DNA of 32,000 bases from an uncultured archaeon (GTDB taxonomy: Archaea; Micrarchaeota; Micrarchaeia; Micrarchaeales; CABMGC01). Below the pieces are notes generated by a model, which was given only the letters and a program-made list of their open reading frames with translations, made no database searches and was not told where the DNA came from. Position 1 is the first letter of the stretch. Every line of letters starts with the position of its first letter. Positions 13,375 through 32,000 of the stretch are shown here, in pieces. A program made the translations under genes and the position numbers. Where the stretch lies: NCBI GenBank assembly GCA_963704435.1, contig OY969902.1, positions 360,001 to 392,000 of the forward strand. Reading direction: 5' to 3'.

Positions 13375-13431
13375 GCTCTCAATGGTCTTCTGGCTAATCA
13401 AAGATAAAAACATATGCAGGGAAATAAACCC

Positions 13432-14234: not shown

Positions 14235-15254
14235 GTGAATAAGGAAGAGACAAAGATATTGAGCTATCTCTCAGACAACTTAGGTGATGGGGGAAACATA
14301 CGGGAAATGTCAGAGGGCATAAATAAAAGATATGGCCCTGCTTATTATTCTAACATCTACAACACCACGAATAAGCTTAAAAAAATGGGCATCGTAGACA
14401 TAGCGCAGGAAGGAAAGAACAGGCGGATAACGCTCGACGCGGAAAATCCCTTCTCAACGTATTACATGTCTGAGATCGAGAGCCACAAGGCTAGCCAAAC
14501 AACCCTCTCTAAGGAAATGCTGAGCAGCATATTGGATCTTGCTGAAAGATTCAATATATTTTCCATTTGCACTTTGGAAACTGAAAAACATCTGAAAATA
14601 AACAGGATAGAGATGCTAATCCTTGCCCAGAATCACGACGATGATGGAAAACTGATAAAATCTCTTTTACGAACGGAATCCGAGCAGGGAATAAAAATAG
14701 ACCCCTGCATATTTGCCATTGACGAATTCATAAAAATGATGCAGACCGATGAACTAAACCCGATAAAGGACATTATCCCTGACAAATGCGTATTATACAA
14801 CAGCGAAGGTTTCTGGAGCCTGATAAACCATCACAAGATAGGAATCAAATACAAAAAATCCAGAAAATTCTCCCTATATCTGACAGCGAGCGAACTAGCG
14901 TATAATTACAACAGGCAAGGCTATCAATTGAATGAGCAAATCAGGCCTTCCGAGAAGATATCCTTAGAAACCACAATATTCTCAATGAGCATCAAAAACG
15001 AAACCAGAATAAAATACGGAGCCATAATCCTGCTGTACAAAAACATTGAAAGAATAAATTGGGCTTGTTTATTCTATATGTACAAAAGATATGATGAGCT
15101 AAACAGATTCAAAAGCATCCTGCTTTCATTGGCAGACTTAAAGAATACGACAAACAACGCGGATATCAACCGCTACATCGAAATCATTACAGACAAACCA
15201 GATACGAAATACGACGCTAAAATAATTAAAAAATACATGGAGGTGTATGGTTAA
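14235..15254 (+). CDS. wHTH-domain protein of an AT-rich accessory gene pair (possible AbiEi-like regulator/antitoxin)
   Basis: 339 aa. The N-terminus TKILSYLSDNLGDGGNIREMSEGINKRYGPAYYSNIYNTTNKLKKMGIVDIAQEGKNRRITL is winged-helix-like. GTG start. Its stop TAA directly abuts the next ATG (TAAATG). Confidence 0.45.
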   Translation: MNKEETKILSYLSDNLGDGGNIREMSEGINKRYGPAYYSNIYNTTNKLKKMGIVDIAQEGKNRRITLDAENPFSTYYMSEIESHKASQTTLSKEMLSSILDLAERFNIFSICTLETEKHLKINRIEMLILAQNHDDDGKLIKSLLRTESEQGIKIDPCIFAIDEFIKMMQTDELNPIKDIIPDKCVLYNSEGFWSLINHHKIGIKYKKSRKFSLYLTASELAYNYNRQGYQLNEQIRPSEKISLETTIFSMSIKNETRIKYGAIILLYKNIERINWACLFYMYKRYDELNRFKSILLSLADLKNTTNNADINRYIEIITDKPDTKYDAKIIKKYMEVYG

Positions 15255-15770
15255 ATGGCAGGAATTTCAAAAAGAGACCTCCTACAGTTTCTTGAGTCCT
15301 TTGATCAGGAACTGACCAGAAAAATCCTGCTTGTTGCAGTTGGAGGAACCGCGATGACCTTGCTAGGCATCAAGGCGACAACGAAAGACATAGATTTCAA
15401 CATACCCTTGGAGGAGGATTTCAATGAATTCGCGCACATCAGAGACAAAATAAGGCCGGGCGTAAAAATTGACTGTTGGAGTTCTAATACCATATTCAGC
15501 GAGATTTTGCCGGGGGATTACATAAAAATTGCGATTGATTATCCTTCTGGCCTTCGAAAAATCGAAATTAAACTGTTGAACCCTATAGATATCGCATGTT
15601 CAAAAATCAGCAGGTTTAACGAGGCGGATCGGGAAGATATAGTGGACTGCATTGAAAAAATCGGCATAACAAGAGTACAGATGAGAAAGAGGGCGCAGAG
15701 ATATTCGCAGGTCGGAAGTGAACGGGCATTCAATGAAAATCTCGAATATATATTAGAGAACCTGTTCTAG
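15255..15770 (+). CDS. Minimal nucleotidyltransferase-fold protein (DUF6036/AbiEii/MNT-like)
   Basis: Pol-beta superfamily signature GG-x13-DxD (VAVGGTAMTLLGIKATTKDIDF). The later ..DIACSKISRFNEADREDIVDCI resembles the family's C-terminal helix. 171 aa, translationally coupled to the upstream gene. Confidence 0.6.
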   Translation: MAGISKRDLLQFLESFDQELTRKILLVAVGGTAMTLLGIKATTKDIDFNIPLEEDFNEFAHIRDKIRPGVKIDCWSSNTIFSEILPGDYIKIAIDYPSGLRKIEIKLLNPIDIACSKISRFNEADREDIVDCIEKIGITRVQMRKRAQRYSQVGSERAFNENLEYILENLF

Positions 15771-15858
15771 TTAATCCTATTCTGCAAGGGATAAAAATAG
15801 CGCCGAAGCCCGAGAGGCCTAGGGCATAAGCCAGCGGAAAAGTAAGCTTGGACTTAAA

Positions 15859-16209
15859 CTAGGGGGCCCGTGGTTTCGCCCGTGTGGACTTGGAAGGGGT
15901 CGGACTTAGGGGAGCCCTGCTGTCGAGTATGTAGTTCTTCACGACCTTGACCACCTGGTCTATGGCCCGCTTGATGTCCGCCTCGGTCTTTGCGCCCGTG
16001 CAGATTATCTTTCCGTTCTTGAACAGAAGCAGCGCTACCTTCGGCTCCTTTATCTTGTATATCGCTCCAGGGAACTGCTCCGGCTCGTAGTCGACGTCAG
16101 GCGAGGCCTTCGCTATCTCGTACAGGTCGAGCTCCACGCCCAGGTCTGCGCTGGCTACTATGTTCTCTATTTTGAACTGCGGATGAAGCGTGACCTTTTT
16201 CTTTGCCAT
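15859..16209 (-). CDS. Single-repeat TBP-domain protein (half-size TATA-binding-protein homolog)
   Basis: KIENIVASADLGVELDLYEIAKASPDVDYEPEQFPGAIYKIKEPKVALLLFKNGKIICTGAKTEADIKRAIDQVVKVV matches one TBP repeat almost motif for motif. The ORF is only 116 aa and ends in a Pro/basic tail. No second repeat is found in any frame nearby. Confidence 0.8.
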   Translation of the reverse strand: MAKKKVTLHPQFKIENIVASADLGVELDLYEIAKASPDVDYEPEQFPGAIYKIKEPKVALLLFKNGKIICTGAKTEADIKRAIDQVVKVVKNYILDSRAPLSPTPSKSTRAKPRAP

Positions 16210-16745: not shown

Positions 16746-17117
16746 GTGAACAACGTGAAACGATTAACGAAGGAAGAGATAGTTGAGATTAACAAGAGCA
16801 TAGGAGAGGGAGGGGTGGAGAAAAATAGCAATCTTCCTGGCATAATCTACGCGTTGGATGAGACTGCTAACGTGGAGGATTATGCGACGCTGCTCTTGAC
16901 TGAGCTAATAAATCTTCATCCTTTCTTGCAGGGCAACAAGAGGACCGCGTTTTATTCGCTTGTGATGTTCCTCCGGAAGAACGGATACGCGCTAAAGAAG
17001 GAGCATAAATATAACGACAAAATAGACAGGATACTGATAAGTGTGATACGAGGAAAATCAAAGAACCATACGAGGCAGTTGCTAAAAAAGATGATATATT
17101 ATGGAAAACCTAAATGA
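16746..17117 (+). CDS. Doc-family (Fic-fold) toxin
   Basis: Doc-type motif HPFLQGNKRTAF (HxFxxGNKR). 123 aa. AT-rich context. Confidence 0.8.
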   Translation: MNNVKRLTKEEIVEINKSIGEGGVEKNSNLPGIIYALDETANVEDYATLLLTELINLHPFLQGNKRTAFYSLVMFLRKNGYALKKEHKYNDKIDRILISVIRGKSKNHTRQLLKKMIYYGKPK

Positions 17118-18448: not shown

Positions 18449-19390
18449 TCATGCCTTCGCGAGGAATTCCTTGACCTGCTTGTAATACTGCTTCAGGGCA
18501 AACTCCACCGGGGCCTTGACGTGGTCCTTCTCGACCGAATCAATGAGCGCTTCGAAATACTTCTCCTTCTCCAGGGATATGTTCAAGAGAGGGAAACCCT
18601 CGTCAAGCAGGGTCTTATTGAATATTAGCCTGCAGATCCTCTTGTTTCCATCAAGAAAAGGATGGATCTTGTACAGTTTGTAGTGCGCAATTGTGGCTTT
18701 TTCTATAGGATTTAAGCGGCTACGGCCATACCAGTCGATAAACTCGTCAAGCAGTTTACCCACCTTATCAGAGCCGGGAGGGCGATAGTTCAACTCAACG
18801 CTCACCTGCCCCTCCCCCGCCATCCTATGCAAGTACACTTGCCTATCCCTGATCCGTCCGGGATTCTTGGTCTCGAAGCTGGCCATGGTTATCTTATGCA
18901 GCCCGAGCAGGTACCTCATATCAAGCTTACGGGGCTGCCTTATCAATTCCACGGCATTGAGCATGTTCCTGCTTATCTGCTCTTTTTGGTTGAGATAGGA
19001 ACCCTTTTCCAAAGCGTTCTTCACGTCCGCCAGGCTAACGTCCACATCTTCCGTCGTGAGGGTCGTCAACGTGAACAAAACGGTGCTGTCGATGTCGAAG
19101 TTGCGCCTCTTCAGGTTAGTCAATTTCCCGTATTTCCTGTTGAACAGGTCCCGAAACAGCAGGGACCTTATGACCTCGCCATTCTCAATCAATTCCGCGG
19201 CATACTTTTTGCCCGAGAGCCTTACGACAATCTCTTCCTTGAAGCCGTTTTCGATCTTGACTAATTCCTTTTCAGTAGGCTTTCTGACCCCTATGTATTT
19301 GCTGAAACTCCTTGACTTGTCAATCAAGAAATAGCTAAGAAAGGAGTAGTAGTAATCATTTCCTCTGATCTTCTTTACGACGAGCGTCAT
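18449..19390 (-). CDS. Fic-domain protein (probable AMPylase/NMP-transferase)
   Basis: Fic motif HPFLDGNKRICR, 313 aa. Composition is more AT-rich than the flanking core genes. Confidence 0.85.
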   Translation of the reverse strand: MTLVVKKIRGNDYYYSFLSYFLIDKSRSFSKYIGVRKPTEKELVKIENGFKEEIVVRLSGKKYAAELIENGEVIRSLLFRDLFNRKYGKLTNLKRRNFDIDSTVLFTLTTLTTEDVDVSLADVKNALEKGSYLNQKEQISRNMLNAVELIRQPRKLDMRYLLGLHKITMASFETKNPGRIRDRQVYLHRMAGEGQVSVELNYRPPGSDKVGKLLDEFIDWYGRSRLNPIEKATIAHYKLYKIHPFLDGNKRICRLIFNKTLLDEGFPLLNISLEKEKYFEALIDSVEKDHVKAPVEFALKQYYKQVKEFLAKA

Positions 19391-19531: not shown

Positions 19532-20491
19532 GTGAAGGATTATAAGTCTGCGCATCATAAAGCAGGCAATCCAGGTGAGCACTTGAACGCTAGCGACTCC
19601 TACAAGCAGGTCCTTTCTGAGATGAAGAAGCACATCTCAGGGAAGGAGGAGACCATCGAGCTGATGTTCGTCGCGATACTCGCGAACGGCCACGCGCTGC
19701 TTGAGGGCGTGCCTGGAGTCGCGAAGACCACCATGACCAAGGCGCTGGCGAGCACCATCCAGGCGGATTTCAAGAGGATACAGGGCACGCCTGACCTAGG
19801 CCCGCGGGACATAGTCGGCTACACCTACGTGGACACGGACAACAGCGTCAAGTTCAGCAAGGGGCCTGTGTTCACCAACATACTGCTCGTCGACGAGCTG
19901 AACAGGGCCCCGCCCAAGACGATGAGCGCGCTGCTCGAGACCCTGGAGGAGAGGCAGGTCACTGCCGGGGGATCGGACATGAAGCTCCCGATGCCGTTCA
20001 TAACGTTCGCGACGCAGAACCCGCTGAGGATAGAGGGCACCGAGCAGATACCAAAGGTGCTGGCGGACAGGTTCATAATCAAGATAGACGTGGACTACCC
20101 GAGCATGAGGGAGGAGGAGGACATGCTCAGGATAAAGGAGAAGGAGGAGAACGTAGAGGTCAAGAAGATAATAGACACCAAGGCCATACTCGAGATGCAG
20201 GAGCAGGTCAAGGGAGTGGAGCTGCCGGACGACGTCGCGCAGTACATAACGAAGATAGTGGACGCCACGAGGAAGGACATGCACGCGGTCATGGGGGCGA
20301 GCCCCAGGGCGGACATAGCCTTCATGTGGTGCGGCAAGGCGAAGGCGCTCATCGAGGGCAGGTCCAGGGTCACCAGCGAGGACATAAAGTTCCTGGCGAG
20401 GCCGGTGCTGAGCCACAGGATAGCCGTCAGGGCGACCGGAGGCATAGGCGTGCACGGCATAATAGACGGGATAATAGCAACGCTCGGCTGA
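19532..20491 (+). CDS. MoxR-family AAA+ ATPase
   Basis: Walker A EGVPGVAKT, Walker B ILLVDELNRAPPKTMSALLE. 319 aa, typical of MoxR. GTG start; the N-terminal helix (VLSEMKKHISGKEETIE) requires a start upstream of ATG-19622. Confidence 0.9.
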   Translation: MKDYKSAHHKAGNPGEHLNASDSYKQVLSEMKKHISGKEETIELMFVAILANGHALLEGVPGVAKTTMTKALASTIQADFKRIQGTPDLGPRDIVGYTYVDTDNSVKFSKGPVFTNILLVDELNRAPPKTMSALLETLEERQVTAGGSDMKLPMPFITFATQNPLRIEGTEQIPKVLADRFIIKIDVDYPSMREEEDMLRIKEKEENVEVKKIIDTKAILEMQEQVKGVELPDDVAQYITKIVDATRKDMHAVMGASPRADIAFMWCGKAKALIEGRSRVTSEDIKFLARPVLSHRIAVRATGGIGVHGIIDGIIATLG

Positions 20492-20528: not shown

Positions 20529-20560
20529 GATGCTAGCATATGCTATACCAGGCCGGTTTT

Positions 20561-20929
20561 ATGAATTTTAGCAAACTCAGGTTGTTTGTTTACCTGCTGA
20601 CTACGGTCAGCATGTTCTCAATGGTACTCGGGCAGCCAGCGGTCACGGCGATATCGAGCACGCTCTGCGGGATAGTCGACGCCGTGAGGACCATAGTGGG
20701 CGCGCTGGCGCTGTGCCTGTTCCTGCTTGGCGGAGTCATGTACGCGGTATCGCACTTCCTTCCGACGAACCTCGAGTTCAAGAAGAGCCTCACGGCCTGG
20801 TCGACCGCGATGATAACAGGAGGCATAATCGGGCTGGTCATAGTCCTGATAGCGCAGCCTCTCATAACCACGATAACGGGATTGGGCAACTCGGTCAGCG
20901 GAACCACCCTCACCACAATCTCGTGCTGA
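20561..20929 (+). CDS. Small secreted two-helix membrane protein, VirB2/TrbC (CedA1/TedC)-like pilin candidate
   Basis: Signal peptide MNFSKLRLFVYLLTTVSMFSMVLGQPAVTA. Hydrophobic helix 1: LCGIVDAVRTIVGALALCLFLLGGVMYAV. Short polar loop: LPTNLEFKKS. Hydrophobic helix 2: WSTAMITGGIIGLVIVLIAQPLITTITGLG. This is the same order and approximate lengths as T-pilin/TrbC. The family call is by architecture only. Confidence 0.5.
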   Translation: MNFSKLRLFVYLLTTVSMFSMVLGQPAVTAISSTLCGIVDAVRTIVGALALCLFLLGGVMYAVSHFLPTNLEFKKSLTAWSTAMITGGIIGLVIVLIAQPLITTITGLGNSVSGTTLTTISC

Positions 20930-21009
20930 GACGGCGCTGCCCGCCTTAAACTGGAACCCCTAGCCTGCGGTTCGCCAAGTGTTAAATTGCTTTGGCGTCA
21001 TGAGTAACC

Positions 21010-22920
21010 ATGCGGCTCGATAACGGCAAGGTCCTCTACGCCGAGCTATTCGTATTGCTGGTGATGCTTCTCGCGTATTGCGAGGGCACGTCCTTCATCA
21101 TCTTCCTGTCCGAGCAGATATCCATCGTCGGGCTCGCGTTCTATCTCCTGGCATTCGCCTACCTCATAGCATATGCCTATTGGAACTGCGCTGGCATGGG
21201 CGCACGCGGGACGAGCCACTGCTCCCTCGCGCTGCACGCCATGTTCATGGGGGCCGTTGCGGTCTTCCTGCTGCCCTTCGCGCTCGGAACTCAGATGTAC
21301 CCGGACATCCTGCTGAAGTCGGCCTACACATTCGAGTCGTTCGGCGTGTTCTTCGCCGTATTCATACCCCTCTTCTTCCTGACGTTCGTCGCCGCGTACC
21401 TGGCCAGGCAGAGGAAGGACTACAGGCACGCCCTGCTGCTGTTCATCGTGGCATTCCTAGTGCTGCTGATTCTCTTCTCCGCTAAGTTCCTGGTGAAGGG
21501 ATTCATCGCCGACGACGAGGAATTCCTAGCGGCGCAGAGCGTACATGCGATGCTCAGCGGCGCAAACCCATATGCAATGAACCTGGCTGGGCTAATCTAT
21601 GACAACTCCAGCGTGGTGGTCCCATCAATGACGGCCACTAACAGGATAATAGGGACGATGGTCTACCCTGCCCTGTTCTTCCTCACGTTCGTGCCCTTCT
21701 ACTTCGCTTCGCCGCTCACGCTGCAGAACATAGGCGGCATAGACCTACCCCTGCAAGCCGCGGTATTCGCGTTCGCGCTGCTTGCGGTCTTCGCATTCAC
21801 CGTGAACAAGGAGGACCTGTTCAAGCCGCGCGTCACGCTCCTCGCGCTGTTCGTCGTCGTGCTGGTGTACTACGTCTCATCCATAACGACGTACCTGATG
21901 CTCGCGCTGATGCTGCTAGCGTACGCGAAGATAGACTCGAAGTATGCGTGGATCCCGCTCGGGCTCTGCCTCTCGATACAGGAGGAGCTCTGGCTGCCCA
22001 TGCTATTCCTGCTCGTGTACTCATTGAACCGGCACGGCGCCAGGCGAGCGGCACTGAACGCGCTGGGCGCTGCGGCCGTGTTCCTTGCGTTCAACGCGTA
22101 TTTCATCGCGCTCGGGCCTGCGACATACGTCGGCGCGATATTCTCGCCCCTGAGCAAGATGCTTCTCCCTATAACCCCCTCTCCTATCGGCCTCCTGTTG
22201 ATGAGCGCCTTCCCGGTGCAGCTGCAGACATACTCGGCGGTGTTCGTGCTTGCCGCTGCGTTGCTGCTTCTTGTGTTCATGTACAGGAGCAGGAAGGAAC
22301 TGATACCGCTGTTCGGGTTCCTGCCGCTGCTTGTGCTTCCCCACCTGCTGCCGGCCTATTACATCCTCTTCCTCTTCTTCGCCCTATTCGCTGTGTGCAC
22401 TGCCGAAGGAAAACGCCGGAGCCTTGGCGTGGCCGAGGCATTCCTTCGCAAGAGGAAGCCGGTCCTTGCATGCGCGATTGTTATTGTTGTCGCCTGCACG
22501 GCGCTCGTACTCCTCTCTTCGCATGCGGCGTACGAAAGGAACTTCAACATATCATTGCAGGGCCAGAGCCTCTACCCACTTGCGGGCACGAACTCCACCG
22601 CCTACAACGCCAGCATAAGATATTCCGACCTTGAAAACGACACGGTCTATATGATGGTCATTGCGCATGCGGGCTTCTCCTCGGGGATCTTCGGCCTGCT
22701 GAACGATACGATCATAGTCCCTGCGCCTACGCCCGCGTGCGCAGCGTATGAGTGCTACGTCAACACGAACAGGATAGTGCTCTCGCAGAACGGGACGCAG
22801 GCCCTGGTGAGCGCCTTGCTGCCGCAGCTGAACGGTACCGACGTGGACTACGCGGACGTCGTCCTGTACAACGGCGAATACGTATACCTGGGGGCCAGCC
22901 TGCGCAGCGCGGGCAGGTAG
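21010..22920 (+). CDS. Large polytopic membrane protein, GT-C-type glycosyltransferase-like
   Basis: About 13 TM segments. The acidic loop FIADDEEFLAAQSVHAMLSGANPY...TMVYPALFFL resembles the Dx(D/E)...G.(S/N)PY...YPP loop of PIG-M/GT87/DUF2029-type mannosyltransferases. The C-terminal ectodomain of about 130 aa has 6 N-x-S/T sequons. TATA-like GTTAAATT at about 20981-20988. Confidence 0.45.
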   Translation: MRLDNGKVLYAELFVLLVMLLAYCEGTSFIIFLSEQISIVGLAFYLLAFAYLIAYAYWNCAGMGARGTSHCSLALHAMFMGAVAVFLLPFALGTQMYPDILLKSAYTFESFGVFFAVFIPLFFLTFVAAYLARQRKDYRHALLLFIVAFLVLLILFSAKFLVKGFIADDEEFLAAQSVHAMLSGANPYAMNLAGLIYDNSSVVVPSMTATNRIIGTMVYPALFFLTFVPFYFASPLTLQNIGGIDLPLQAAVFAFALLAVFAFTVNKEDLFKPRVTLLALFVVVLVYYVSSITTYLMLALMLLAYAKIDSKYAWIPLGLCLSIQEELWLPMLFLLVYSLNRHGARRAALNALGAAAVFLAFNAYFIALGPATYVGAIFSPLSKMLLPITPSPIGLLLMSAFPVQLQTYSAVFVLAAALLLLVFMYRSRKELIPLFGFLPLLVLPHLLPAYYILFLFFALFAVCTAEGKRRSLGVAEAFLRKRKPVLACAIVIVVACTALVLLSSHAAYERNFNISLQGQSLYPLAGTNSTAYNASIRYSDLENDTVYMMVIAHAGFSSGIFGLLNDTIIVPAPTPACAAYECYVNTNRIVLSQNGTQALVSALLPQLNGTDVDYADVVLYNGEYVYLGASLRSAGR

Positions 22921-22969
22921 CGGCTCCTTTAAGAGTATTTTTTAATGTTGCGTGCATTGTATAGAAAAC

Positions 22970-23710
22970 ATGAGGAACGTCAACATCCTTACAGACACGT
23001 GGGAAACGTACGTGGACAACATAAAGCTCGTCCTGCTCTTCTCGATACCCTTCTTCATATCGCTCGTCATACCGCTGTTCGTGAGCCTCCCGACCTACAT
23101 ATCCGGCGGGGGCATATTCCTCAGGAGCGCCAGCGTGTTCCTTAACCTCAACCCCGTCGCAGTTGGGGTCATAATCGTCTCGATGTTCCTGTCCCTGCTC
23201 TTCCTGAGCTTCGCGCTGGTCGCGATAGCGCTGATAGTCAGGGCGAAGAGGACCCACACCCGGCACGCCGGGAACGTCATAAGGGACATAGAGAAGTACA
23301 CGGGCAGGGTCTTCGTGATGCTGCTGGCGGCCGCGGGCGCGCTCACCGTGGTCGACATACTGAGCTACTTCATCGGCCTGCAGGGCATAGCGACCCCGAT
23401 AGCCGGGTTCGTGATCTTCACGGTGCTGTTCTACGCGCCGACCGCGATAGTCGTTGAGAACAAGAGGATAGGCCCCGCGATAGTGCAGAGCGCGCGGCTT
23501 GTCGCCAAGGAGCCCGGATACTACATCGCGTGGCTTGTGCTCGTCGTGCTGGTGCTCTCCGTGCTGGACGTGGTGCTTATGGCGCTGCCGTACGGCACCT
23601 TCCTGTCGAGGTACGGCCTGCTGGTCGTGAACTCGGTCTTCATACTCCCCTACTTCGTCATCTACCAGGCGGAGGCGTACATGAGGAGATTCCCTCTGCT
23701 GAAGCACTGA
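22970..23710 (+). CDS. Hypothetical 6-TM membrane protein
   Basis: Hydrophobic helices throughout. ATG-22970 is preferred over GTG-22952 because of the AT-rich box at 22927-22944. No recognisable catalytic motif. Confidence 0.7.
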   Translation: MRNVNILTDTWETYVDNIKLVLLFSIPFFISLVIPLFVSLPTYISGGGIFLRSASVFLNLNPVAVGVIIVSMFLSLLFLSFALVAIALIVRAKRTHTRHAGNVIRDIEKYTGRVFVMLLAAAGALTVVDILSYFIGLQGIATPIAGFVIFTVLFYAPTAIVVENKRIGPAIVQSARLVAKEPGYYIAWLVLVVLVLSVLDVVLMALPYGTFLSRYGLLVVNSVFILPYFVIYQAEAYMRRFPLLKH

Positions 23711-23750
23711 ACGCTATTTATAGCTTGTCTTAGCAAAGTAAGAAGAGATC

Positions 23751-25103
23751 ATGAAGCGATGCTTCCTCGGCCTGCTGGCGCTTATTCTAGTTCTTGCAGT
23801 AGCGGCAAACGCCGCCTCTGCCGCATCGACGCCCTCCCAGACGTGCAGCGCACCTACTCTGCCTTCAACGGGCGCCACGGTAGACACAAGCCAATGCTAC
23901 CTGCCTGGCGCGCTGTCCGGAACTCCCGTCTGCTCCGCGGGCTGCTCGCTGGCCGTCTCCGCGTGCCCGCTGGGATCCCTTGGGAGCATATATTCCTGCG
24001 TATCGTCTTCGGAAGCCGCCTGCTCCGCTGCGCAGGCGATCGCTACTCCAACCAATGCGATAGCGATTTCGCTCCTCGCGCTCACGGTATCGTTCGACGT
24101 CGTCGCCGTCGCGTACATGCTGTCGAAGATATTCCCGCACACCGGGATAAAGGAATGGATAAGCAAGGAGTACTGGGAGATAACGAAGTCCGCGATGCTG
24201 ATAATCTCGATCTACGCGATAATCTCTATACTGGGCAACATCGCCCTCTTGGTCGCGGGCAGCTCGATCCCTGCCCCCGGCACCGGACTGACGACATGCA
24301 ATTCTGGCACATGCGGGCTGGTCGCTGGGGCGTGCGCATACCTTTCAACGGAGAACACTTACTTAGAAGGTACGTTCAGCTATCTCATAGGTCTAAGTGA
24401 GGGAATCGGAGCACTGCAGTCCGTTAAAGTAACGGCATTTTTCCCAATTGAAGCAATTTATGTGGTCTTCAAGTCGGGATTCACGGTTCCAGTGTATACG
24501 AACAACATGCTCGGGACGAGCGTGCCGGGCATAGCGGAATCGCAGTCGCTGATCAACGACGTATTCAACATACTGGCCTTTCCGCTGGCGTTCATCATCG
24601 GCGCGCAGCTGGCCGTGCTTCCGGTGCTGTTCGTGCTCGGGCTTGCGTTCCTGATACCCTTGGGCCTCATACTCCGCGCCTTCCCGTTCGTGAGGGGCAT
24701 CGGCGGGACGTTCATAGCCGTAGGCATAGGCGTAGCGCTCATTTACCCCGCGCTGCTGGTGCTGCTCAACGCGCCGATCACCTCCGCGCTGCAGGGCACG
24801 GCGTTGGCCGCTCCTCCGCAGTCCCCTCAGGTAGGAAATGGAATAATAGCCACGCTCGCTGGGATAGTCTTTTCCATAATGGGAGGATCTGCGTCCGCAG
24901 GCATAGGGACTGCGCTGGACAGCATAAACACGATATACCCTGCGATTAACGGAATACTCTACTACAGCACGTACCTCATGCTCCAGTTGTTCCTGTTCAT
25001 ACTCGACATCACGATAGCGTTCCCGCTTGTCGATAACATCGCAAGAATGCTCGGCAGTTCGGGAATAAGGCTCTCGATAGCAGGCAAGATAAAGCTCGTG
25101 TAG
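23751..25103 (+). CDS. Polytopic membrane protein, paralog 1 of 6 (VirB6/CedA-like by topology and context only)
   Basis: Signal peptide (..AVAANA/ASAAS) and a Cys-rich N-terminal ectodomain. Motif 1: GIKEWISKEYWE. Motif 2: LILRAFPFVRGIGGTFIAVGIGVALIYP. C-terminus ..GKIKLV. TATA-like TATTTATA at 23715-23722. Confidence 0.8.
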   Translation: MKRCFLGLLALILVLAVAANAASAASTPSQTCSAPTLPSTGATVDTSQCYLPGALSGTPVCSAGCSLAVSACPLGSLGSIYSCVSSSEAACSAAQAIATPTNAIAISLLALTVSFDVVAVAYMLSKIFPHTGIKEWISKEYWEITKSAMLIISIYAIISILGNIALLVAGSSIPAPGTGLTTCNSGTCGLVAGACAYLSTENTYLEGTFSYLIGLSEGIGALQSVKVTAFFPIEAIYVVFKSGFTVPVYTNNMLGTSVPGIAESQSLINDVFNILAFPLAFIIGAQLAVLPVLFVLGLAFLIPLGLILRAFPFVRGIGGTFIAVGIGVALIYPALLVLLNAPITSALQGTALAAPPQSPQVGNGIIATLAGIVFSIMGGSASAGIGTALDSINTIYPAINGILYYSTYLMLQLFLFILDITIAFPLVDNIARMLGSSGIRLSIAGKIKLV

Positions 25104-25111
25104 GTGCTAGC

Positions 25112-26302
25112 ATGGCGTTCGGATCTCTAGGATTGCTTCTTCAGGCGTGCGGATTCGCGAGCCTGAACACCGGAGACTGGATAGGCATCAACACGCTTGT
25201 TGTCCTGCTTGGCATAACCGTGGCCGCATTCATCTACGCCTTGGCGAACTTCCTAACCGTTGAGAGGAGGGAGAAGCTAAAGGGTTATGTCAGGTACGAG
25301 ATCCTCGAGGCGGCGTTCAGCGCGATAATCCTCGTGTCTCTCATACTCATCGCCTCCTTCGCGTGCAGCGCGGGAGGCCTGCTGTACGGGCAGAGCGGCT
25401 ACACGGGCCTCTTCGCCTCATCCGACACGTACGTCGGGAACCTCCTGTTCGTAAGCGGTCTCAGCGCGCTGGGGAACATCTTCACTGTCGGAACGCAGTA
25501 CACCGTCATTTCGAACATCGCGCAGGGAATATCAGCGGGCTACCTCGAATCTATCTCAGAGAACTACTCTGTGCCAGTACTAGGGGGCTATGCCTCTATT
25601 TCACCAGACACGAAGATAACCGATCTGTTCACCAAGTTCTCCGCGCTCTTTTTCACGCTTGTCGATACGATGGCTATCTCGTTTGGAGGCCTGTTCATAC
25701 TGTTCGTTATGCTTCCAATAATAAGCGCGACCGCGCTAACTGTAGTGGCGCCTACGGCGCTTCTGATGAGGTCGCTGAGCTTCATGGGGCCTCAGTTGAG
25801 GAGGACTTCCAACCTATTCCTCGCCATGGCCATAGGCTTCTATTTCGTGCTGCCCTTGATGATAGGCACCAACGCTTATGTGGCCAGCTGCTTGAACATA
25901 TATGCATCCCCTTCGCAGCCTTCCTGCAACTATCCCTTCTTCCCAGGATATACCGGACCTTACACCCTGTTTTCGGTTTCTACATCCTCGCTGTTCGGCT
26001 CGGGCGCCACGTATCCGCTCAGCTCCTCCAACTTGCCAAGCTTTGCAAATGGCATCTCAGTTCCACTGAGCTTCTTCGGGTCTGCGTTTTTAAGCACGAG
26101 TGGTCTAGGACAGCTGTTTACTATCATATTTAACGGACCTCAACTCGCAGCGCAGTATGCCTCGGCTACCGCGGCGTACGTATTCATGGGAATCATAATG
26201 GTCGCGCTGGACCTAGGCGTGACCGTGGGCTTCATAATGGGAATCGCGAGGGGCTTGGACTCGCTCGGCAGATTTTCAGGAGGGTCGTTCTTTGGTGGTT
26301 GA
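25112..26302 (+). CDS. Polytopic membrane protein, paralog 2 of 6 (most divergent)
   Basis: Motif 1: EKLKGYVRYEILE. Degenerate motif 2: LLMRSLSFMGPQLRRTSNLFLAMAIGFYFVLP. AGGTG lies 8 nt upstream of the ATG. Confidence 0.8.
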   Translation: MAFGSLGLLLQACGFASLNTGDWIGINTLVVLLGITVAAFIYALANFLTVERREKLKGYVRYEILEAAFSAIILVSLILIASFACSAGGLLYGQSGYTGLFASSDTYVGNLLFVSGLSALGNIFTVGTQYTVISNIAQGISAGYLESISENYSVPVLGGYASISPDTKITDLFTKFSALFFTLVDTMAISFGGLFILFVMLPIISATALTVVAPTALLMRSLSFMGPQLRRTSNLFLAMAIGFYFVLPLMIGTNAYVASCLNIYASPSQPSCNYPFFPGYTGPYTLFSVSTSSLFGSGATYPLSSSNLPSFANGISVPLSFFGSAFLSTSGLGQLFTIIFNGPQLAAQYASATAAYVFMGIIMVALDLGVTVGFIMGIARGLDSLGRFSGGSFFGG

Positions 26303-27817
26303 TTGAGGCTCGCACTGCTCATAGTTGCGCTATTCGCGCTCCTTGCGCCTTCGCTGGCAATGGCGGCATCAGGCGGATTCATCACGAACTACTCTGAGTT
26401 CTCGCTGTGGCTGCCGGTCATAGCGCTCGCGGCGACGATGAGCGTAATGTTCACCGGAATCTATTACATCATGGGAGTGGTGCTGCAAAGCAAAGACATA
26501 AAGTCCAGAGCAATCGGAGAGTTCGGCCAGGCCGTAGGTACGGTGATCATAGTGGTGGCCCTCATCGGAATACTATGGTTCGTAGGCACGAGCGAGTTCT
26601 CCCTCGTCTCAGCCCTTGCCCCGGGCTCTCTCTCAACCGTCTGCAGTCAGCTTGGCGCGTCGCAGGTGCTACTGCTCAACAGCAATGCGCAGATTAACGA
26701 CATATCCACTCCGACGAGCGTCGTGTGCTCCGCCGTGAGCTCTCTCGCATCCGCGGGAGGAGGAGCAGCGCCCGCGTCAGGGAGTTCATCGGGAGGAACG
26801 GACATAACGCCGCAGCTGGACTACGGCCTGCTAGCGAGCTATGTCATAATGGCGAACGTTACCAACCAGGCTGCGACCAATATCAACTCCGTGTACATCT
26901 TTGAGGGATGGATGCTCTTCTTAGGAGGGGTGACCGCCAATTCCGCATTCTGCGAACCACTCACTTGTGCTGCTCCGGATACGCCAGAGGCTATTGAAGT
27001 GGACCTCTTCAGCACTCCGATGGCGGGATATGGAAACCTTCTCAACATTTTCAACCCTCTCGAAACAGAATCCTGGCTGACGTTCTACATCATGTTCGTG
27101 CAGCTTTTAGTCATAATTCTGCTGCTCCTCGCATGGCCGTATCTGCTTGCTGCGGGAATGATACTCAGGGCGACGTTCCTAACCCGAAGAGCGGGAGGCT
27201 TGATTATGGCTATAGCGGTATCGATGGCCTTGATATACCCACTTATGTATGTTCTGGAGTACAGTGCATTCGCGAACCTCAACTTGAGCCCCCTTGGTGC
27301 AGGCATGACAGCGAGCGGCGCGACAGCGAACCCCCTTCTGGACATGCCGCTATATGAAAGCCAACCTAATGCCGGGCTTCTAAGCGGCTCCAGCATAGTG
27401 ACTTACGGATCGTCGGGGCTTAATTTCTTCATACTCCCCAATGCTAAGGAGGTGATTGACAGATATTCATGCATGCCTCCGACAGACCCAACAGGAGTGC
27501 CTAACTTACTTGGGGGGGAAACGGCAGTAGCTCTGTTGTATTTGGCACCCGGACTTAGCTTTGCATCCACGCTAACGGCTGCGATAAGCGGGTTCGGCGG
27601 TGGCCTAGGTGTGGTCCCATCGATAAGCGCGTTGGGCTGCTCCCCGAACAACGCGATAAACGCGGCGCTGGCGCTGATAAACCTGTACGGGGTCGTCTTC
27701 GTCCTGGGAATCGTGCTACCAGTAATAAACGTGATGATTGCAATAGCCATGGTCCAAAGCACGGCAAGGCTTTTCGGCGGAGACACGAACATACTCGGGA
27801 TAGGGAAGCTGATATAG
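26303..27817 (+). CDS. Polytopic membrane protein, paralog 3 of 6
   Basis: TTG start immediately after the preceding stop. Signal peptide ..APSLAMA/ASGG. Motif 1: DIKSRAIGEFGQ. Motif 2: MILRATFLTRRAGGLIMAIAVSMALIYP. C-terminus ..GIGKLI. Confidence 0.8.
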   Translation: MRLALLIVALFALLAPSLAMAASGGFITNYSEFSLWLPVIALAATMSVMFTGIYYIMGVVLQSKDIKSRAIGEFGQAVGTVIIVVALIGILWFVGTSEFSLVSALAPGSLSTVCSQLGASQVLLLNSNAQINDISTPTSVVCSAVSSLASAGGGAAPASGSSSGGTDITPQLDYGLLASYVIMANVTNQAATNINSVYIFEGWMLFLGGVTANSAFCEPLTCAAPDTPEAIEVDLFSTPMAGYGNLLNIFNPLETESWLTFYIMFVQLLVIILLLLAWPYLLAAGMILRATFLTRRAGGLIMAIAVSMALIYPLMYVLEYSAFANLNLSPLGAGMTASGATANPLLDMPLYESQPNAGLLSGSSIVTYGSSGLNFFILPNAKEVIDRYSCMPPTDPTGVPNLLGGETAVALLYLAPGLSFASTLTAAISGFGGGLGVVPSISALGCSPNNAINAALALINLYGVVFVLGIVLPVINVMIAIAMVQSTARLFGGDTNILGIGKLI

Positions 27818-27830
27818 AAGAGGTTAGGAC

Positions 27831-28979
27831 ATGATAAAGGTGGTCGCTCTTATGGTGTTCGCGCTTCTTATCGCTAGCGCAGGCGCGCAGGGGCTCATCA
27901 ACATACCCGCAGGGCTGTGCCCTACCCTCTTCCCGAGCGGCGGAGCAGTATCCAGCACGGGCGTTGCGCTGGGTAACGCATCAACCTACTCGAGCATAAT
28001 AAGCATCTCGCTAATCGTGGTCCTCACCATGCTGTCGGTACTTGGAATAACGTACGCATTAGGGACCGCGTTCAACATAGAGCCCCTGAAGGCGTTCACG
28101 CGCTCCGAGCTCGCCGAGAGCATATTCAGCCTGGCGCTCATCCTGGTGCTGGGCCCTGGCCTTGCGTTCTCCGGAAGCGTAATATCCTTCATCTCTAACG
28201 TCGGGCTCGCCAGCATGCTGACGCTTCCCTCCAGCGGAACTGCAACCTTTCCCACCGCATCGGTCACGAGCGCAGGCGATGTCTACGTAGCGCTGTGCAA
28301 CAGCTACATAACTCAAGGCACGAACATAATGATATCAAATGCGTTCACGACATACGCTACGTTTACAATAATGGAGTTCATAAGATCTCTGAATTTCCCT
28401 ATCTCAGGCCAATTCGGAGTTAATGAGTTCAAGCCCTTTGCAGGCATATTCCCACTGTCGAAGGGCCTGATAAATGGCCAGCTTGAGGCATTCTATGCGA
28501 TGGTAGGCATACTGCTCGGAGTGACCTTCTTCCTCTATGTCATATATGCCATCTTCCCGCTGCTCCTGTACGCGGGGCTGTTTCTGAGGTCGCTACCGTG
28601 GACCCGCGCCGCTGGCGGCTCCTTCATCGCGATGTTCATCGCTTTCTACATATTCTTCCCAGCGATACTCTACCCTTTCTCGCTTTACATGTATTCTTCT
28701 AATGGATACACGCCACTTACAATCTCCAGCAGCGGCCAGGCCATCACTACATCGTCGTTCTTCTCAGTCGGAGCGATAGGAGCGGTGATTCCGTGGTTCT
28801 CCGGCAGCTTGATAGTCAATGAAATATACGGCTTCGCGCAGCAGGGCGCAGCAGTCGCACTGCAGATGCTTGGCGTACTCATCGCATTCGTAATCTCCTT
28901 CGACCTTGTGGAGGCATTCGGTGACCTTCTGGGAGCGCCATCGCTGCACACCAGGAAGCTTTTGGGCAAGTTGATATGA
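27831..28979 (+). CDS. Polytopic membrane protein, paralog 4 of 6
   Basis: Signal peptide ..ASAGAQG/LIN. Motif 1: PLKAFTRSELAE. Motif 2: LFLRSLPWTRAAGGSFIAMFIAFYIFFP. C-terminus ..LLGKLI. GAGGT lies 8 nt upstream. Confidence 0.8.
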   Translation: MIKVVALMVFALLIASAGAQGLINIPAGLCPTLFPSGGAVSSTGVALGNASTYSSIISISLIVVLTMLSVLGITYALGTAFNIEPLKAFTRSELAESIFSLALILVLGPGLAFSGSVISFISNVGLASMLTLPSSGTATFPTASVTSAGDVYVALCNSYITQGTNIMISNAFTTYATFTIMEFIRSLNFPISGQFGVNEFKPFAGIFPLSKGLINGQLEAFYAMVGILLGVTFFLYVIYAIFPLLLYAGLFLRSLPWTRAAGGSFIAMFIAFYIFFPAILYPFSLYMYSSNGYTPLTISSSGQAITTSSFFSVGAIGAVIPWFSGSLIVNEIYGFAQQGAAVALQMLGVLIAFVISFDLVEAFGDLLGAPSLHTRKLLGKLI

Positions 28980-30031
28980 TGAGCAACATGATACTTCTAT
29001 ACAGCATCGCGAACTATGTTACCTCGCCGTACCTCATCTGGTTCCCAGTAGTGATGTCAGGCGCACTTGCAATAGTAGGCATAATCGCTCTGGTCTACAT
29101 GCTAAGCTCGTCGATAGGCAGGGAAGACATACGGATTCAGGCGAAGATGAAGATTTACGAAATCGCAATCTCCATCCTGATGATTTTTGCGTTCCTAGTC
29201 CTCGCCACGCTCGTGACCTCGATGAACTTCGAAATGATGCTTTCCCCGTCCGGCCTCGTCCCGAAGGGCTGCACGAGCACGGTCGACATGTTCTCGCTCG
29301 CCATATGCAACCTGCACGAGTTCAATAACAACGTCCTGAACCTGACCGCACTCACTTACTGGATGGGCGTGTCGCTCTCTTTCGTGCCAAAGCTGACGCT
29401 GAATGGACAGGCCGTCGTCTCTGCGCTGACAGGCATACAAGGCTGGGGCCCAACGGCGGACGTGTCACTGCTGCCTAGCTCGTACGACGCATTCATAGGT
29501 TATCTCCTCATCGCACTGTACTTCTCCTTCATGTTGTCACAGGTGGAGATGCTACTTCTCGAGGCGTCTCTCCTGCTATTCTCGATGTTCATGGCAATAG
29601 GGCTTATAGCCAGAATCTTCGTCATCACGAGGAGCTTCGGCGGGTCGATGATTGCCCTGGCCATCGGAATCGGAATGCTCTATCCCTTCCTCGCGTGCAT
29701 AACATACGGTTACATCAATGTTGGAATGGAAGCCAATAATGCAATCTTCAGCGGCGCTACGCCTTATGTGATAATCCTGGGCATCACCTTGGCTTCGATT
29801 TCAATGATAGCCTTCACCTTGCCTGCAATCCTGGCTGCGCTTGGAGGCATATCCCTCGCGTACTTCAACGGACTGATAACAAGTGCGTTGATCTACGCAG
29901 GTCTCGCTGGAGCGGGATTATTACTGATTCCCTTCGTAAACTTCCTCATAATTGATGTTTTCATAATCGACTTCTCAAAGGTAATAGGAGAGAAGATGGA
30001 CTTCATGAAGATTCTTACCGGAATAATCTAG
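28976..30031 (+). CDS. Polytopic membrane protein, paralog 5 of 6
   Basis: ATGA overlap with paralog 4. Motif 1: DIRIQAKMKIYE. Motif 2: LIARIFVITRSFGGSMIALAIGIGMLYP. C-terminus ..LTGII. Confidence 0.8.
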   Translation: MMSNMILLYSIANYVTSPYLIWFPVVMSGALAIVGIIALVYMLSSSIGREDIRIQAKMKIYEIAISILMIFAFLVLATLVTSMNFEMMLSPSGLVPKGCTSTVDMFSLAICNLHEFNNNVLNLTALTYWMGVSLSFVPKLTLNGQAVVSALTGIQGWGPTADVSLLPSSYDAFIGYLLIALYFSFMLSQVEMLLLEASLLLFSMFMAIGLIARIFVITRSFGGSMIALAIGIGMLYPFLACITYGYINVGMEANNAIFSGATPYVIILGITLASISMIAFTLPAILAALGGISLAYFNGLITSALIYAGLAGAGLLLIPFVNFLIIDVFIIDFSKVIGEKMDFMKILTGII

Positions 30032-30034
30032 GAG

Positions 30035-31144
30035 ATGCGAGTGGAATATCTGACGCGCACGAGATTCATAATGATCGCACTTGCCGCACTTCTGGCAATG
30101 TCCATGGGAACGGTAGGGGCCCAGACAACGTATTGCCAACCAGGGGGCACTGCTGAATCCCTAGCGCCGTGGTACTGCAGCCAGCTGAACCAGGCCATCA
30201 CGAGCGTCTGGCAGAAGTGGGAGCCAGTCGCGATAATCACCATATTCCTGTCGTTCTTCATTGCAGCGTTGATATTCATGGTAGGAATAGCAATGCGGAA
30301 CGATGGTGTGAGGAATTTCGGGGTCGGCGAGATGTATGAGGCGTCCGCCACGGCGCTGATTGCAATATTCTTTCTCACGCTGTCGGCTATACTCTTCGGA
30401 GTAATACCAGGATTCTTCGTAGGTCCGATAAATCCCTATGTCACGGCGCTGTCGTACATAAGCAATACCGTCAATGCAACGCAGGGAATCATAAAGAGCT
30501 TGTTTGCAGTCCAGATGACCGCCAGCTACTTCATTTCGTTGAAGCTACACATATACGTCTATGCATTTGGAGAGCTTACGGCGGGCGGATTCAACAGCGC
30601 GACCTTTTATGAGCCATTTGCGAAGTTCATAGCTCCATTTTTCATAGTACCTGCTAATACTATCATTTCCATGCTAACAGACGGCCTAATTTACTTGTCC
30701 GCGGAGTTCTACATGATACTCTTCCTCATGTACATCGCGGTGCCCGTGCTGCTCATACCTGGAATCATACTCAGGGCGATATTCCCTCTGAGGGGGCTTG
30801 GCGGTACGCTGATCGCCATGGCCCTGGCGTTCTATCTAATAATGCCCGTCCTCTTCTCAGTCGTCTATTACTTCACGAACACCAGCATGATAGGTACGCT
30901 GACTGCTGCAGCGGCCCAGATCACCGCGAACGGGGCGGGGACTGGGGCAATAACCAACACCGTCTCCGCCACGTCGCCTCTGGTAACCCAGGTTTCAAAC
31001 CTGGAGAGCAGCATGGGGGCGTACTTCCTCGCGATTCTGTTCTATCCTGCCTTGATACTTACAATTATCTACGTAGCGATAGTCGAGATCTCCGGTTTCC
31101 TTGGTGTGGCGGTAATGAAGTCCAAGAGGCTAAGCATGGTATGA
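30035..31144 (+). CDS. Polytopic membrane protein, paralog 6 of 6
   Basis: GGAG lies 3 nt upstream. Signal peptide ..GTVGAQT/TYC. Motif 1: GVRNFGVGEMYE. Motif 2: IILRAIFPLRGLGGTLIAMALAFYLIMP. Confidence 0.8.
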   Translation: MRVEYLTRTRFIMIALAALLAMSMGTVGAQTTYCQPGGTAESLAPWYCSQLNQAITSVWQKWEPVAIITIFLSFFIAALIFMVGIAMRNDGVRNFGVGEMYEASATALIAIFFLTLSAILFGVIPGFFVGPINPYVTALSYISNTVNATQGIIKSLFAVQMTASYFISLKLHIYVYAFGELTAGGFNSATFYEPFAKFIAPFFIVPANTIISMLTDGLIYLSAEFYMILFLMYIAVPVLLIPGIILRAIFPLRGLGGTLIAMALAFYLIMPVLFSVVYYFTNTSMIGTLTAAAAQITANGAGTGAITNTVSATSPLVTQVSNLESSMGAYFLAILFYPALILTIIYVAIVEISGFLGVAVMKSKRLSMV

Positions 31145-31266
31145 TTGCCGTGCACAACGGTATAAAAGCTTTAAGTGGCAAGTAGGTGCGAAGCCGCGGA
31201 ACCGCTGGTTTCGGGCGGATTCGCGAGCGTGGTTGCGTGCCGGTATCTGAAAAATTCTTATTCACG

Positions 31267-32000
31267 ATGCTGATACTCGTCTCCGCGACGCTCATAATAT
31301 TCACGCTGCTCTTCACCTTCTCCGACGCCGCCAAGTTCGCGCTCATCGTAGTCGCGCTGCTGCTCGACATACTGGCATTCTCTACGAAATTCTACACGCG
31401 GTTCTTCATCCCGTTCCTCCAGATGAAGGGCAGGACAGTGACATTGAGCGGCAGCGAGGCGTTCACGCTGGCGCCTACGGGCAACGCGATAGTCGTGAGG
31501 GACGGCGGAGACACCTACGCGAGCGCATTCGTGAAGATACCTTCGTACAGGTCCGCGACCGAGATGAACCCTGACGAGAAGATCGACTTCGCCAAGCTCT
31601 TCAGCAGGGCGATGACCATATCAAAGACGCCGGTGAAATTCGCGACCCAGCTGTATGTGATAAACAAGGACTCGTACATAAGCAACATAAGGAGCAAGCT
31701 GAACGAGGCCGAGGAGAGGTACAGTGGGACCTCGCTCGACAAGGGCGCCTCCAAGGAGCAGACGGAGAGGATAAAGGGGGAGGTCACGATGTGGCACAAT
31801 CTCTTCGACCACGTCAGCAAGACCCGGTCGCTGTCGCTCGAGGCCTACGCCATGGTCACCTCGCAAGGGGGCAGCGAGGAGGAGGCGGTGAACCTCGCGC
31901 TGCAGAGGGCGGACGAGATCGCCACCGGAATCAGCGCCCTGTTCGGCATAAGCGCGAGCGTCATGGAGGGCGAAGAGATGCTCAAGTTCGTGGAACCCGA
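31267..32000 (+). CDS. 2-TM-anchored protein, 5' part only (candidate VirB3-VirB4/CedB-like; unverified)
   Basis: Not in the ORF track because it runs off the window. Frame 1 is open from TAG at 31183 to the edge. ATG-31267 gives MLILVSATLIIFTLLFTF..FALIVVALLLDILAF (two TM helices). A soluble domain follows (..GNAIVVRDGGDTYASAFVKIPSYRSATEMNPDEKIDFAKLFSRAM..). GTG-31237 is an alternative start. No NTPase motif is reached before the window ends. Confidence 0.7.
   Translation, partial: MLILVSATLIIFTLLFTFSDAAKFALIVVALLLDILAFSTKFYTRFFIPFLQMKGRTVTLSGSEAFTLAPTGNAIVVRDGGDTYASAFVKIPSYRSATEMNPDEKIDFAKLFSRAMTISKTPVKFATQLYVINKDSYISNIRSKLNEAEERYSGTSLDKGASKEQTERIKGEVTMWHNLFDHVSKTRSLSLEAYAMVTSQGGSEEEAVNLALQRADEIATGISALFGISASVMEGEEMLKFVEP

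Follow-up and report, generated by a model that had tools for sequence, protein, structure and literature searches.

What kind of machinery is encoded by the long series of membrane-protein genes that fills the final part of the 32,000-nucleotide (nt) stretch of archaeal DNA analysed here (positions 360,001 to 392,000 of contig OY969902.1, assembly GCA_963704435.1), which we call the window? Homologs of the window proteins are assigned to Candidatus Micrarchaeota or Micrarchaeia, and the host is a DPANN archaeon. A preliminary description of this DNA had proposed a chromosomal apparatus related to type IV secretion systems (T4SSs) and to the archaeal Ced and Ted systems, and that relationship was borne out through the pilin, the structural model of a membrane-anchored protein here named tm2A, the ATPase and the synteny. 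The pilin, the VirB4-like adaptors and the ATPase point independently to conjugation machinery, and they lie in a phylum-wide cluster devoid of mobile functions, which is the pattern of Ced and Ted. We consider it probable, at roughly 65%, that the locus forms the membrane half of a vertically inherited, T4SS (conjugation)-derived apparatus that is conserved across Micrarchaeota.

The open reading frame (ORF) listing and the spacing analysis gave ten co-directional membrane-protein genes on the + strand from position 20561 to the window end, in the order described before, including six tandem paralogs (P1 to P6) with spacers of exactly 8, 0, 13, −4 and 3 nt. Shine–Dalgarno-like motifs (GGTG, GAGGT or AGGAG-like), earlier ascribed to the paralog array in general, were present 5' of four of the six paralogs (P2, P3, P4 and P6). 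Topologies derived from hydropathy agreed with the first description for the pilin, a protein of 636 amino acids (aa), a 252-aa protein with about six transmembrane (TM) segments, the paralogs and the last gene. The composition of the block likewise proved core-like (GC content 0.51–0.60). That every gene encodes a secreted or membrane protein held for the ten genes from 20561 but not for the block as a whole, since a conserved gene for a non-membrane MoxR protein lies upstream and the block thus does not start at 20540.

Pilin, proposed VirB4-like adaptors and ATPase

The first of the ten genes (20561..20929, +) encodes a VirB2/T4SS-type pilin precursor of 122 aa when read from the ATG at 20561, or 129 aa from the ATG at 20540. 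It has a signal-like segment and two long hydrophobic helices with a conserved Y-A-x-x-H-F-L-P...W loop between them, together with a C-terminal Cys. The window's own copy stays below threshold in Pfam (T4SS_pilin E 0.12, TrbC E 0.47). At the level of the family, 19 of 46 members matched PF18895 (T4SS_pilin, best E 9.8e-6) and 11 of 46 matched PF04956 (TrbC/VirB2, best E 2.6e-5), and hhalign aligned the family profile to TrwL/VirB2 of plasmid R388 across both helices and the loop (E 1.2e-4, probability 55%). On this sequence similarity we accept the small protein as a member of the VirB2/T4SS-pilin superfamily, in line with its earlier designation as a two-helix, VirB2-like protein. In many genomes the pilin gene is present twice, either in tandem or with the second locus some 70 kb distant (loci L091 and L096, both of contig Ga0326728_10000021; L007 4424–4948; L008 8240–9128; L094, L122, L134, L140, L146 and L149), and one copy in such genomes often has a long Ser/Thr-rich N-terminal extension.

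The last gene of the window is tm2A (31267..32000, +), of which the first 244 of 266 aa are encoded before the window ends, 67 nt short of the end of the gene. Its full length was obtained from L001 and from P0142, the contigs identical to the window being L001–L006. A hairpin of two TM segments followed by a soluble domain, as noted previously, was seen in both the hydropathy profile and an AlphaFold 2 (AF2) model. The gene had also been taken for the beginning of a long, truncated VirB3–VirB4 fusion, and this candidate was ruled out, the complete protein being 266 aa long with an alpha/beta soluble domain that has no P-loop, an outcome that the preliminary description itself had named as counting against its proposal. 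Directly 3' of tm2A, beyond the window, lies tm2B, a protein of 274 aa with the same design, and the two proteins are paralogous (hhalign probability 95%, E 2e-8). When the AF2 model of tm2A, built from a 48-sequence alignment with a predicted local distance difference test (pLDDT) score of 75.6, was compared using Foldseek with 350,542 PDB chains, ranks 1–5 were all occupied by R388 TrwK/VirB4 (7o41_A, 7o43_B, 7o41_B, 8rtb_B and 8rtd_g), the best match being 7o41_A with E 8.9e-3 and probability 0.93. Judged from this model, tm2A looks like a VirB3-type hairpin attached to a VirB4-like non-ATPase domain. Because the protein has no P-loop, that domain would correspond to the N-terminal domain (NTD) of VirB4, the aligned TrwK residues themselves not being visible in the matches. 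For tm2B, no link to a known family was found in Pfam, NCBIfam, PDB profiles or hhalign comparisons.

The third component is encoded by the gene that follows tm2B in the relatives L007 and L008, a soluble ATPase of 501 aa scoring above the Pfam cut-offs for DUF87 (the HerA central domain, 59 bits), AAA_10 (53 bits) and P-loop_TraG (40 bits), with Walker A (GITGAGKS) and Walker B (VVLDEAW) motifs evident in the alignment. The NCBIfam models VirB4_plasma, CD1110 and TraC align to it from Walker A to past Walker B. In PDB profile searches it matched HerA proteins as well as 4ag5, a C-terminal domain of VirB4, and its tblastn matches, some of them annotated as TraC and VirB4, lie on 504 plasmids, of which 239 are conjugative. 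The hhalign alignment to TrwK covers residues 605–725, within the C-terminal domain only, and with only about 55 residues before Walker A the ATPase has no VirB4 NTD. An ATPase as part of the system, as had been suggested, is thus found as a HerA/VirB4-family protein in the relatives, although as a separate gene two genes past tm2A. It is 70–97% identical across Micrarchaeota. Between the present genome (P0049) and L007 the identity is 79%, compared with 74% for ribosomal protein L21e and 71% for DUF655, and by this sequence comparison the ATPase is better conserved than L21e.

As supported by P0049, the present genome also has the ATPase, separated from the block by insertions. Here tm2B is followed (L001 13019–19507) by genes for a 310-aa protein, a 467-aa protein of the HTH_AsnC type, a 116-aa protein, a secreted and sequon-rich 669-aa protein and DtdA. 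In the sister species L089 (6640–13854) a homologous HTH_AsnC pair lies between tm2B and the ATPase, and three further genes are inserted between paralog 6 and tm2A. The inserted genes of L001 and L089 encode a 461–467-aa HTH_AsnC-type protein with a small AsnC-like partner and several unrelated proteins of 308–320 aa. The genes for the 310-, 467- and 669-aa proteins and DtdA of this genome were not found near the cluster in relatives, save for one 467-aa homolog at the edge of L051, and they therefore represent lineage-specific insertions or a rearrangement. Together with the insertions in L089, this indicates that the block is being broken in this clade.

The conserved cluster and its six paralogs

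The extent of the cluster was determined with a scan using the ATPase as query and one genome per species, which returned 165 relatives, of which 80 loci were kept for a census with hidden Markov models, and with a metagenome scan using the pilin as query, which gave about 35 loci. Among those of the 80 species loci that had sufficient flank, most showed the order 252-aa protein, P1–P6, tm2A, tm2B, ATPase and a 98-aa protein, with tm2A–tm2B–ATPase kept in others, and the order MoxR, pilin, 636-aa protein, 252-aa protein and paralogs was seen in the metagenome loci. In L075 the MoxR, pilin and 252-aa genes have been relocated together to the other side of the ATPase. Four more genes are conserved 3' of the ATPase in 67–81 loci: the gene for the 98-aa protein occurs in 81 loci, that for a 120-aa protein combining a zinc ribbon with a TM segment in 79, that for a coiled-coil protein of 243 aa in 69 and that for a membrane glycoprotein of 782 aa in 67. 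Since conserved genes are thus found on both sides of the block, the full cluster spans about 25 kb, and the window holds its first eleven genes. Co-occurrence in related genomes, on which the preliminary description had let its proposal depend, was rigid and in the same order throughout some 80 species genomes and 35 metagenome contigs.

Homology between the 98-aa protein and the C-terminal 80 residues of the ATPase was detected with hhalign (probability 94%, E 1.7e-7), and 10 of 43 relatives of the 98-aa protein matched the winged-helix family MCM_C weakly (best E 5.6e-5). The 98-aa protein can be described as a free-standing copy of the ATPase C-terminus (for example L089 15567–15863 and L007 20962–21254, with about 80 other loci). 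An extra gene lies between paralog 6 and tm2A in some lineages (L036 6190–8244, L043 5973–8240 and L079 7267–8250), and its product of 327–755 aa combines a TM hairpin at the N-terminus with a long basic stretch of low-complexity appearance. Several of the Micrarchaeota contigs carry bacterial labels in public records (Aquilonibacter, Saccharimonadales or 'bacterium'), probably as a result of mis-binning.

Core genes of the window encode S6e, aIF2-gamma, KsgA, an eRF1-like protein, L21e, DUF655 and RpoF. In the relative L007 the same L21e–DUF655–RpoF–MoxR neighbourhood precedes the same block, and the locus is therefore chromosomal and vertically inherited. Domain searches of the window found no integrase, relaxase or transposase, confirming what had been noted, and neither relaxase, type IV coupling protein, integrase nor replication functions were found in the window, in the downstream region of L001, or in L007, L008 and L089.

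At the start of the block, the MoxR-type AAA+ ATPase (319 aa, 19532..20491, +; Pfam AAA_3, bpMoxR and AAA_lid_2) has both the AAA_3 core (PF07726, E 1.5e-46) and the AAA lid (PF17863, E 3.2e-15) that define its family. Its gene lies 48–69 nt 5' of the pilin gene in the same direction, and it is directly upstream of the pilin in the metagenome loci. Downstream of the pilin, the 636-aa polytopic membrane protein (21010..22920, +) contains no fewer than 12 hydrophobic segments. An invariant D169-E170 pair comes after its first group of TM segments, and its extracytoplasmic C-terminal domain bears eight N-X-S/T sequons. The protein had been labelled a GT-C-like enzyme, a name for which no profile support was found: its 32 orthologs gave no match in Pfam, NCBIfam or PDB profiles, and hhalign against the neighbouring DUF2079 family, as a test for GT-C, was negative (probability 0.6%), with the Asp-Glu pair as the only hint. 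The 252-aa protein (22952..23710, +; 246 aa in the gene call) is borderline for DUF4013 in Pfam (E 8.9e-6, 26.1 bits against a cut-off of 26.9), and its orthologs, 48–63% identical, always lie immediately 5' of paralog 1. As a candidate equivalent of CedA or VirB6 it was rejected, with hhalign relating it neither to the pilin nor to the paralogs or TrwI (E 0.48 for TrwI).

The largest part of the block is formed by the six tandem genes, all on the + strand and each encoding a polytopic protein: paralog 1 (450 aa, 23751..25103), paralog 2 (396 aa, 25112..26302), paralog 3 (504 aa with a TTG start, 26303..27817), paralog 4 (382 aa, or 375 aa in the gene call, 27831..28979), paralog 5 (351 aa, 28976..30031) and paralog 6 (369 aa, 30035..31144). 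They are true paralogs, 18–25% identical to each other and sharing the motif LR..P..R..GG..IA......P with invariant R309, R315 and P333. Paralog 1 starts with a signal peptide and an exposed, Cys-rich segment; next come a TM hairpin that resembles the pilin and an exposed region that is variable, and the C-terminal part is a bundle of TM segments in which the LRAFPFVRGIGG motif is found. Paralog 6 is the best conserved of the six, with a median identity of 43% between species. In 7991 of 7992 comparisons among the 37 species with six copies, the best cross-species match was found in the same position of the array. From this it follows that the six groups are older than the radiation of these species and that their order is fixed, and by these sequence comparisons they are ancient, position-fixed orthologous groups. 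Such fixed orthology argues for six non-redundant subunits.

The N-terminal TM hairpin of the paralog family could be aligned to the pilin family (hhalign probability 82%, E 1.1e-5, 61 columns). Taken position by position, five of the six aligned to the pilin at the same region with E 2e-5 to 1.6e-3 (7e-5, 2.2e-5, 1.6e-3, 2.1e-4 and 5.6e-4 for paralogs 1 to 5), while the value for paralog 6 was not significant (E 0.023). Reversed-pilin controls gave E 0.04–0.17 against the paralogs, and the other membrane families of the locus gave E 0.16–0.75. With both of these scoring poorly, hydrophobic bias is not the explanation of the match between hairpin and pilin. A few paralog orthologs carry PKD or SprB-repeat inserts in the variable region (P0009, P0019 and members of alignment A8), marking this region as surface-exposed. 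An exhaustive profile search with the paralog family gave 2944 representatives, and the best 150 of these were all close family members, with no bridge to known families among the matches listed.

Relation to known systems, function and alternatives

The closest parallels are offered by the Ced system of Sulfolobales (CedA, CedA1, CedA2, CedB, CedD and CedE) and the Ted system of Thermoproteales (TedA, TedB and TedC), which are likewise chromosomal, domesticated T4SSs without relaxase or coupling protein. They share with the present locus a VirB2-like two-helix pilin, which here has an N-terminal signal-like segment as in TedC, and a HerA/VirB4-family ATPase. With Ced there are two further likenesses. 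One is a polytopic protein with a pilin-like N-terminus, represented here by the paralogs; Beltran et al. (2023) found that the N-terminus of CedA resembles CedA1, together with a weaker VirB6/VirB2 relation (PMC9905601). The other is the distribution of VirB4 NTD function over separate polypeptides, this domain being divided between CedB and CedD (PMC11868833) and here apparently lying on tm2A and tm2B beside a bare ATPase. The differences are also clear. The six fixed paralogs contrast with one or two CedA/CedE-type proteins, and the NTD-like domains sit on membrane-anchored proteins of their own rather than on ATPases. Extra partners are present (MoxR and the 636-, 252-, 98-, 120-, 243- and 782-aa proteins), and the host is a DPANN symbiont with the ATPase conserved at the level of core genes. 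The NCBIfam Ced models, furthermore, found no match among the membrane proteins of the locus, and the ATPase scored far below their cut-offs (CedB NF041017, 62.1 bits against 700; CedD NF053655, 67.8 against 600).

The minimal bacterial VirB/Trw T4SS of R388 (7o41 and 8rt9) has in common with the locus a VirB2 pilin, an ATPase, TrwK, to whose C-terminal domain the present one can be aligned, and, judging by the tm2A model, perhaps a VirB3-type hairpin beside a VirB4-like domain. It differs in that VirB1, VirB5, VirB7–VirB11, VirD4 and relaxase are all missing here, that VirB4 would here be split into three genes, that no VirB6 is detectable by sequence, and that the archaeal host has a single membrane. 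The rvh T4SS of Rickettsiales has tandem expansions of VirB6, with recognisable TrbL/VirB6 (PF04610) proteins. Several tandem paralogs of a polytopic (here putative) channel component in one locus are common to both systems, whereas the six proteins found here do not match TrbL/VirB6. The T4SS of Patescibacteria (candidate phyla radiation), related to the FATA type of mating-pair formation (MPF), is also a vertically inherited T4SS of symbionts with reduced genomes. It has VirB4, VirB3-like and VirB6-like proteins and a pilin of the PF18895/PF04956 type, PF18895 being the family shared with the present pilin, and has been proposed to serve epibiosis rather than plasmid transfer (PMC12102498). 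That system is bacterial, and standard MPF profiles detect its components, in contrast to most of those studied here; it also has an unsplit VirB4 and no six-paralog array.

A mechanism can be proposed for the apparatus. A hexameric ATPase would dock at the membrane via tm2A and tm2B, which would anchor and regulate it, the three together acting as a 'split VirB4', and would pull the pilin out of the membrane. The six paralogs, with one copy each, might form a ring-shaped platform and channel, their pilin-like hairpins seeding a VirB2-type pilus or conduit. The variable exposed loops, which in some species bear the PKD or SprB inserts, could contact another cell, with MoxR and the 636- and 252-aa proteins perhaps helping in assembly or modification. 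The function that we judge most likely is one in which macromolecules pass, upon cell contact, between the symbiont and a second cell, which is probably the host. DNA import, by analogy with Ced and Ted, provides the best precedent for the cargo, and DNA as the substrate is put forward tentatively, at rather less than even odds. The complete picture, which we hold to be possible but on the whole unlikely, would be that of a domesticated, core-like T4SS nanomachine with VirB4 split in three and a hetero-hexamer of six pilin-headed paralogs replacing VirB6/CedA, matched to the hexameric ATPase, serving as an organelle by which host DNA or other macromolecules are obtained.

Several results weigh against the derivation from a T4SS. 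The Foldseek values behind the match of tm2A to TrwK are modest (E 8.9e-3 to 0.14, TM-score about 0.25, TMq 0.21–0.27), and no similarity of tm2A to VirB3 or VirB4 was seen at the sequence level, either with profiles or with hhalign to R388 TrwK and TrwM. The CedB, CedD and HerA models score the ATPase about as well as VirB4 does, all far under the equivalog cut-offs, and within the 7.8 kb that the contigs reach after tm2B the present genome holds only unrelated genes, with no P-loop gene adjoining the block. With regards to the paralogs, none of 108 members matched VirB6/TrbL (PF04610) or a PrgH-type family. A match to a transporter family, which the preliminary description had named as an outcome that would refute its idea, was likewise not seen in any of them. 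Their profile found no match among PDB sequences, including TrwI, and the hhalign comparison with R388 TrwI gave E 0.49. The AF2 model of paralog 1 is of low confidence (pLDDT 63.6) with unusually long helices, and its top Foldseek match, 8rt9_F of the R388 VirB5–VirB6 stalk, was not significant (E 0.5, probability 0.12, TM-score 0.14–0.19). The earlier idea of a six-fold VirB6-like expansion therefore stands with regard to six true paralogs and is unproven with regard to VirB6. The paralogs appear to share the design of VirB6 and CedA, with a pilin-like N-terminal hairpin, an architectural parallel that does not establish membership of the family. Hetero-hexamer, pilus and substrate are, for their part, what we infer from these comparisons and not direct results.

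The alternative that survives best keeps the derivation from a T4SS but assigns it a cargo other than DNA, as a host-interaction pilus or nanotube that attaches to a Thermoplasmatales host and moves proteins, lipids or metabolites. Conservation of the ATPase above that of L21e, together with the phylum-wide block, fits a near-essential role better than facultative DNA exchange. The adhesion-type PKD or SprB inserts of some paralogs and the conserved 782-aa membrane glycoprotein also agree with this alternative. Precedents exist in Patescibacteria, whose chromosomal T4SS has been listed as essential both to survival and to epibiotic growth (PMC12102498), in the nanohaloarchaeal SPEARE proteins, which carry VirB4/TraG-like domains (PMC10266531), and in the lipid that is incorporated stoichiometrically in conjugative and archaeal Ced/Ted pili (PMC9905601). 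However, no domain of an effector, of a VirB5-like adhesin tip or for lipid handling was identified. Ced and Ted, as the only archaeal relatives that have been characterised by experiment, import DNA, and the 98- and 243-aa accessory proteins and the ATPase C-terminus have a weak winged-helix or helix-turn-helix resemblance. The data do not tell one cargo from another, and we regard this alternative as possible, though doubtful.

Considerably less probable is a complex unrelated to T4SSs, with a role in envelope, S-layer or glycan biogenesis or in a novel kind of transport, for which the VirB2 and VirB4 likeness would be convergent or superficial and the ATPase a HerA-type protein with another role. 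Such a complex would account for the finding that the six paralogs and the 636- and 252-aa proteins match no T4SS family, for the ATPase matching HerA profiles as well as VirB4, for the weakness of the structural matches, and for the DUF2079 and GT2 glycosyltransferase genes that are also held in the clusters of relatives. It is opposed by the agreement of three independent components, namely the pilin, tm2A with its ranks 1–5 and the ATPase with its AAA_10 and TraG P-loop matches, by their being locked in one operon-like order in about 80 species, by the absence of NurA, Mre11 or Rad50 partners of HerA with the cluster in L007, L008 and L089, and by the lack of any transporter match among the paralogs. 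The remnant of an integrated conjugative element or plasmid with an MPF module, finally, is very improbable: VirB2- and VirB4-type components are typical of conjugative elements and insertions surround the block in this genome and its sister species, but genes for an integrase, relaxase, coupling protein or replication are absent, the block is composed like the core genes, the same housekeeping neighbours are found in a relative about 70% identical at the protein level, the block is single-copy with conserved order and a highly conserved ATPase phylum-wide, and the six paralog groups had already diverged before the species radiated.

The T4SS-derived apparatus that we favour bears on how DPANN archaea draw on their hosts, which is an open question, with Micrarchaeota having no assigned molecular apparatus for this. 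A limited literature search found no description of this cluster in Micrarchaeota or other DPANN, and it is apparently undescribed. With its VirB2-type pilin, presumed split VirB4, six fixed paralogs and highly conserved ATPase, it offers a concrete and testable candidate, for which a co-culture exists in Ca. Micrarchaeum harzensis with Scheffleriplasma. If the proposal is true, domesticated T4SSs of the Ced/Ted kind would extend from Crenarchaeota to DPANN, in parallel to the T4SS that Patescibacteria need for epibiosis, and the locus would illustrate, from nature, how a T4SS membrane platform can be hetero-oligomeric and how pilin and channel protein are linked.

Other features of the window

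Two tandem paralogous genes on the + strand (6624–9668 and 9745–12207) encode surface proteins (1014 and 820 aa) that contain beta-propellers of the NHL/YncE type. The two proteins are 83% identical over 609 aa and do not differ at all in their last approximately 190 residues, a pattern suggestive of recent gene conversion. Both start with an archaeal type IV pilin-like N-terminus (QSALEFLMTYSF and QSAMEYLLTYGW, respectively), suggesting that they are adhesins displayed via the type IV pilus pathway.

A low-GC island at 14000–16000 (0.40–0.43, as compared to about 0.57) codes for a nucleotidyltransferase of the DUF6036 family and for a 339-aa protein that matched nothing in Pfam. The island was probably inserted recently and may be of toxin–antitoxin or defence type. 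A full-length Fic-domain protein is encoded between RpoF and MoxR (18449–19390, −), and a short Fic fragment lies near L21e (16746–17117, +). In L007, RpoF directly adjoins MoxR and L21e directly adjoins DUF655, so that these Fic genes are lineage-specific insertions. The tRNA and Rfam scans of the window were empty. The eRF1-family protein (12322–13941, −; 539 aa) is extended at its N-terminus, ahead of eRF1 domain 1, by about 190 aa to which no domain matched, and two tandem DHH/DHHA1 phosphoesterase paralogs are encoded at 1736–2740 and 2771–3838, both on the − strand.

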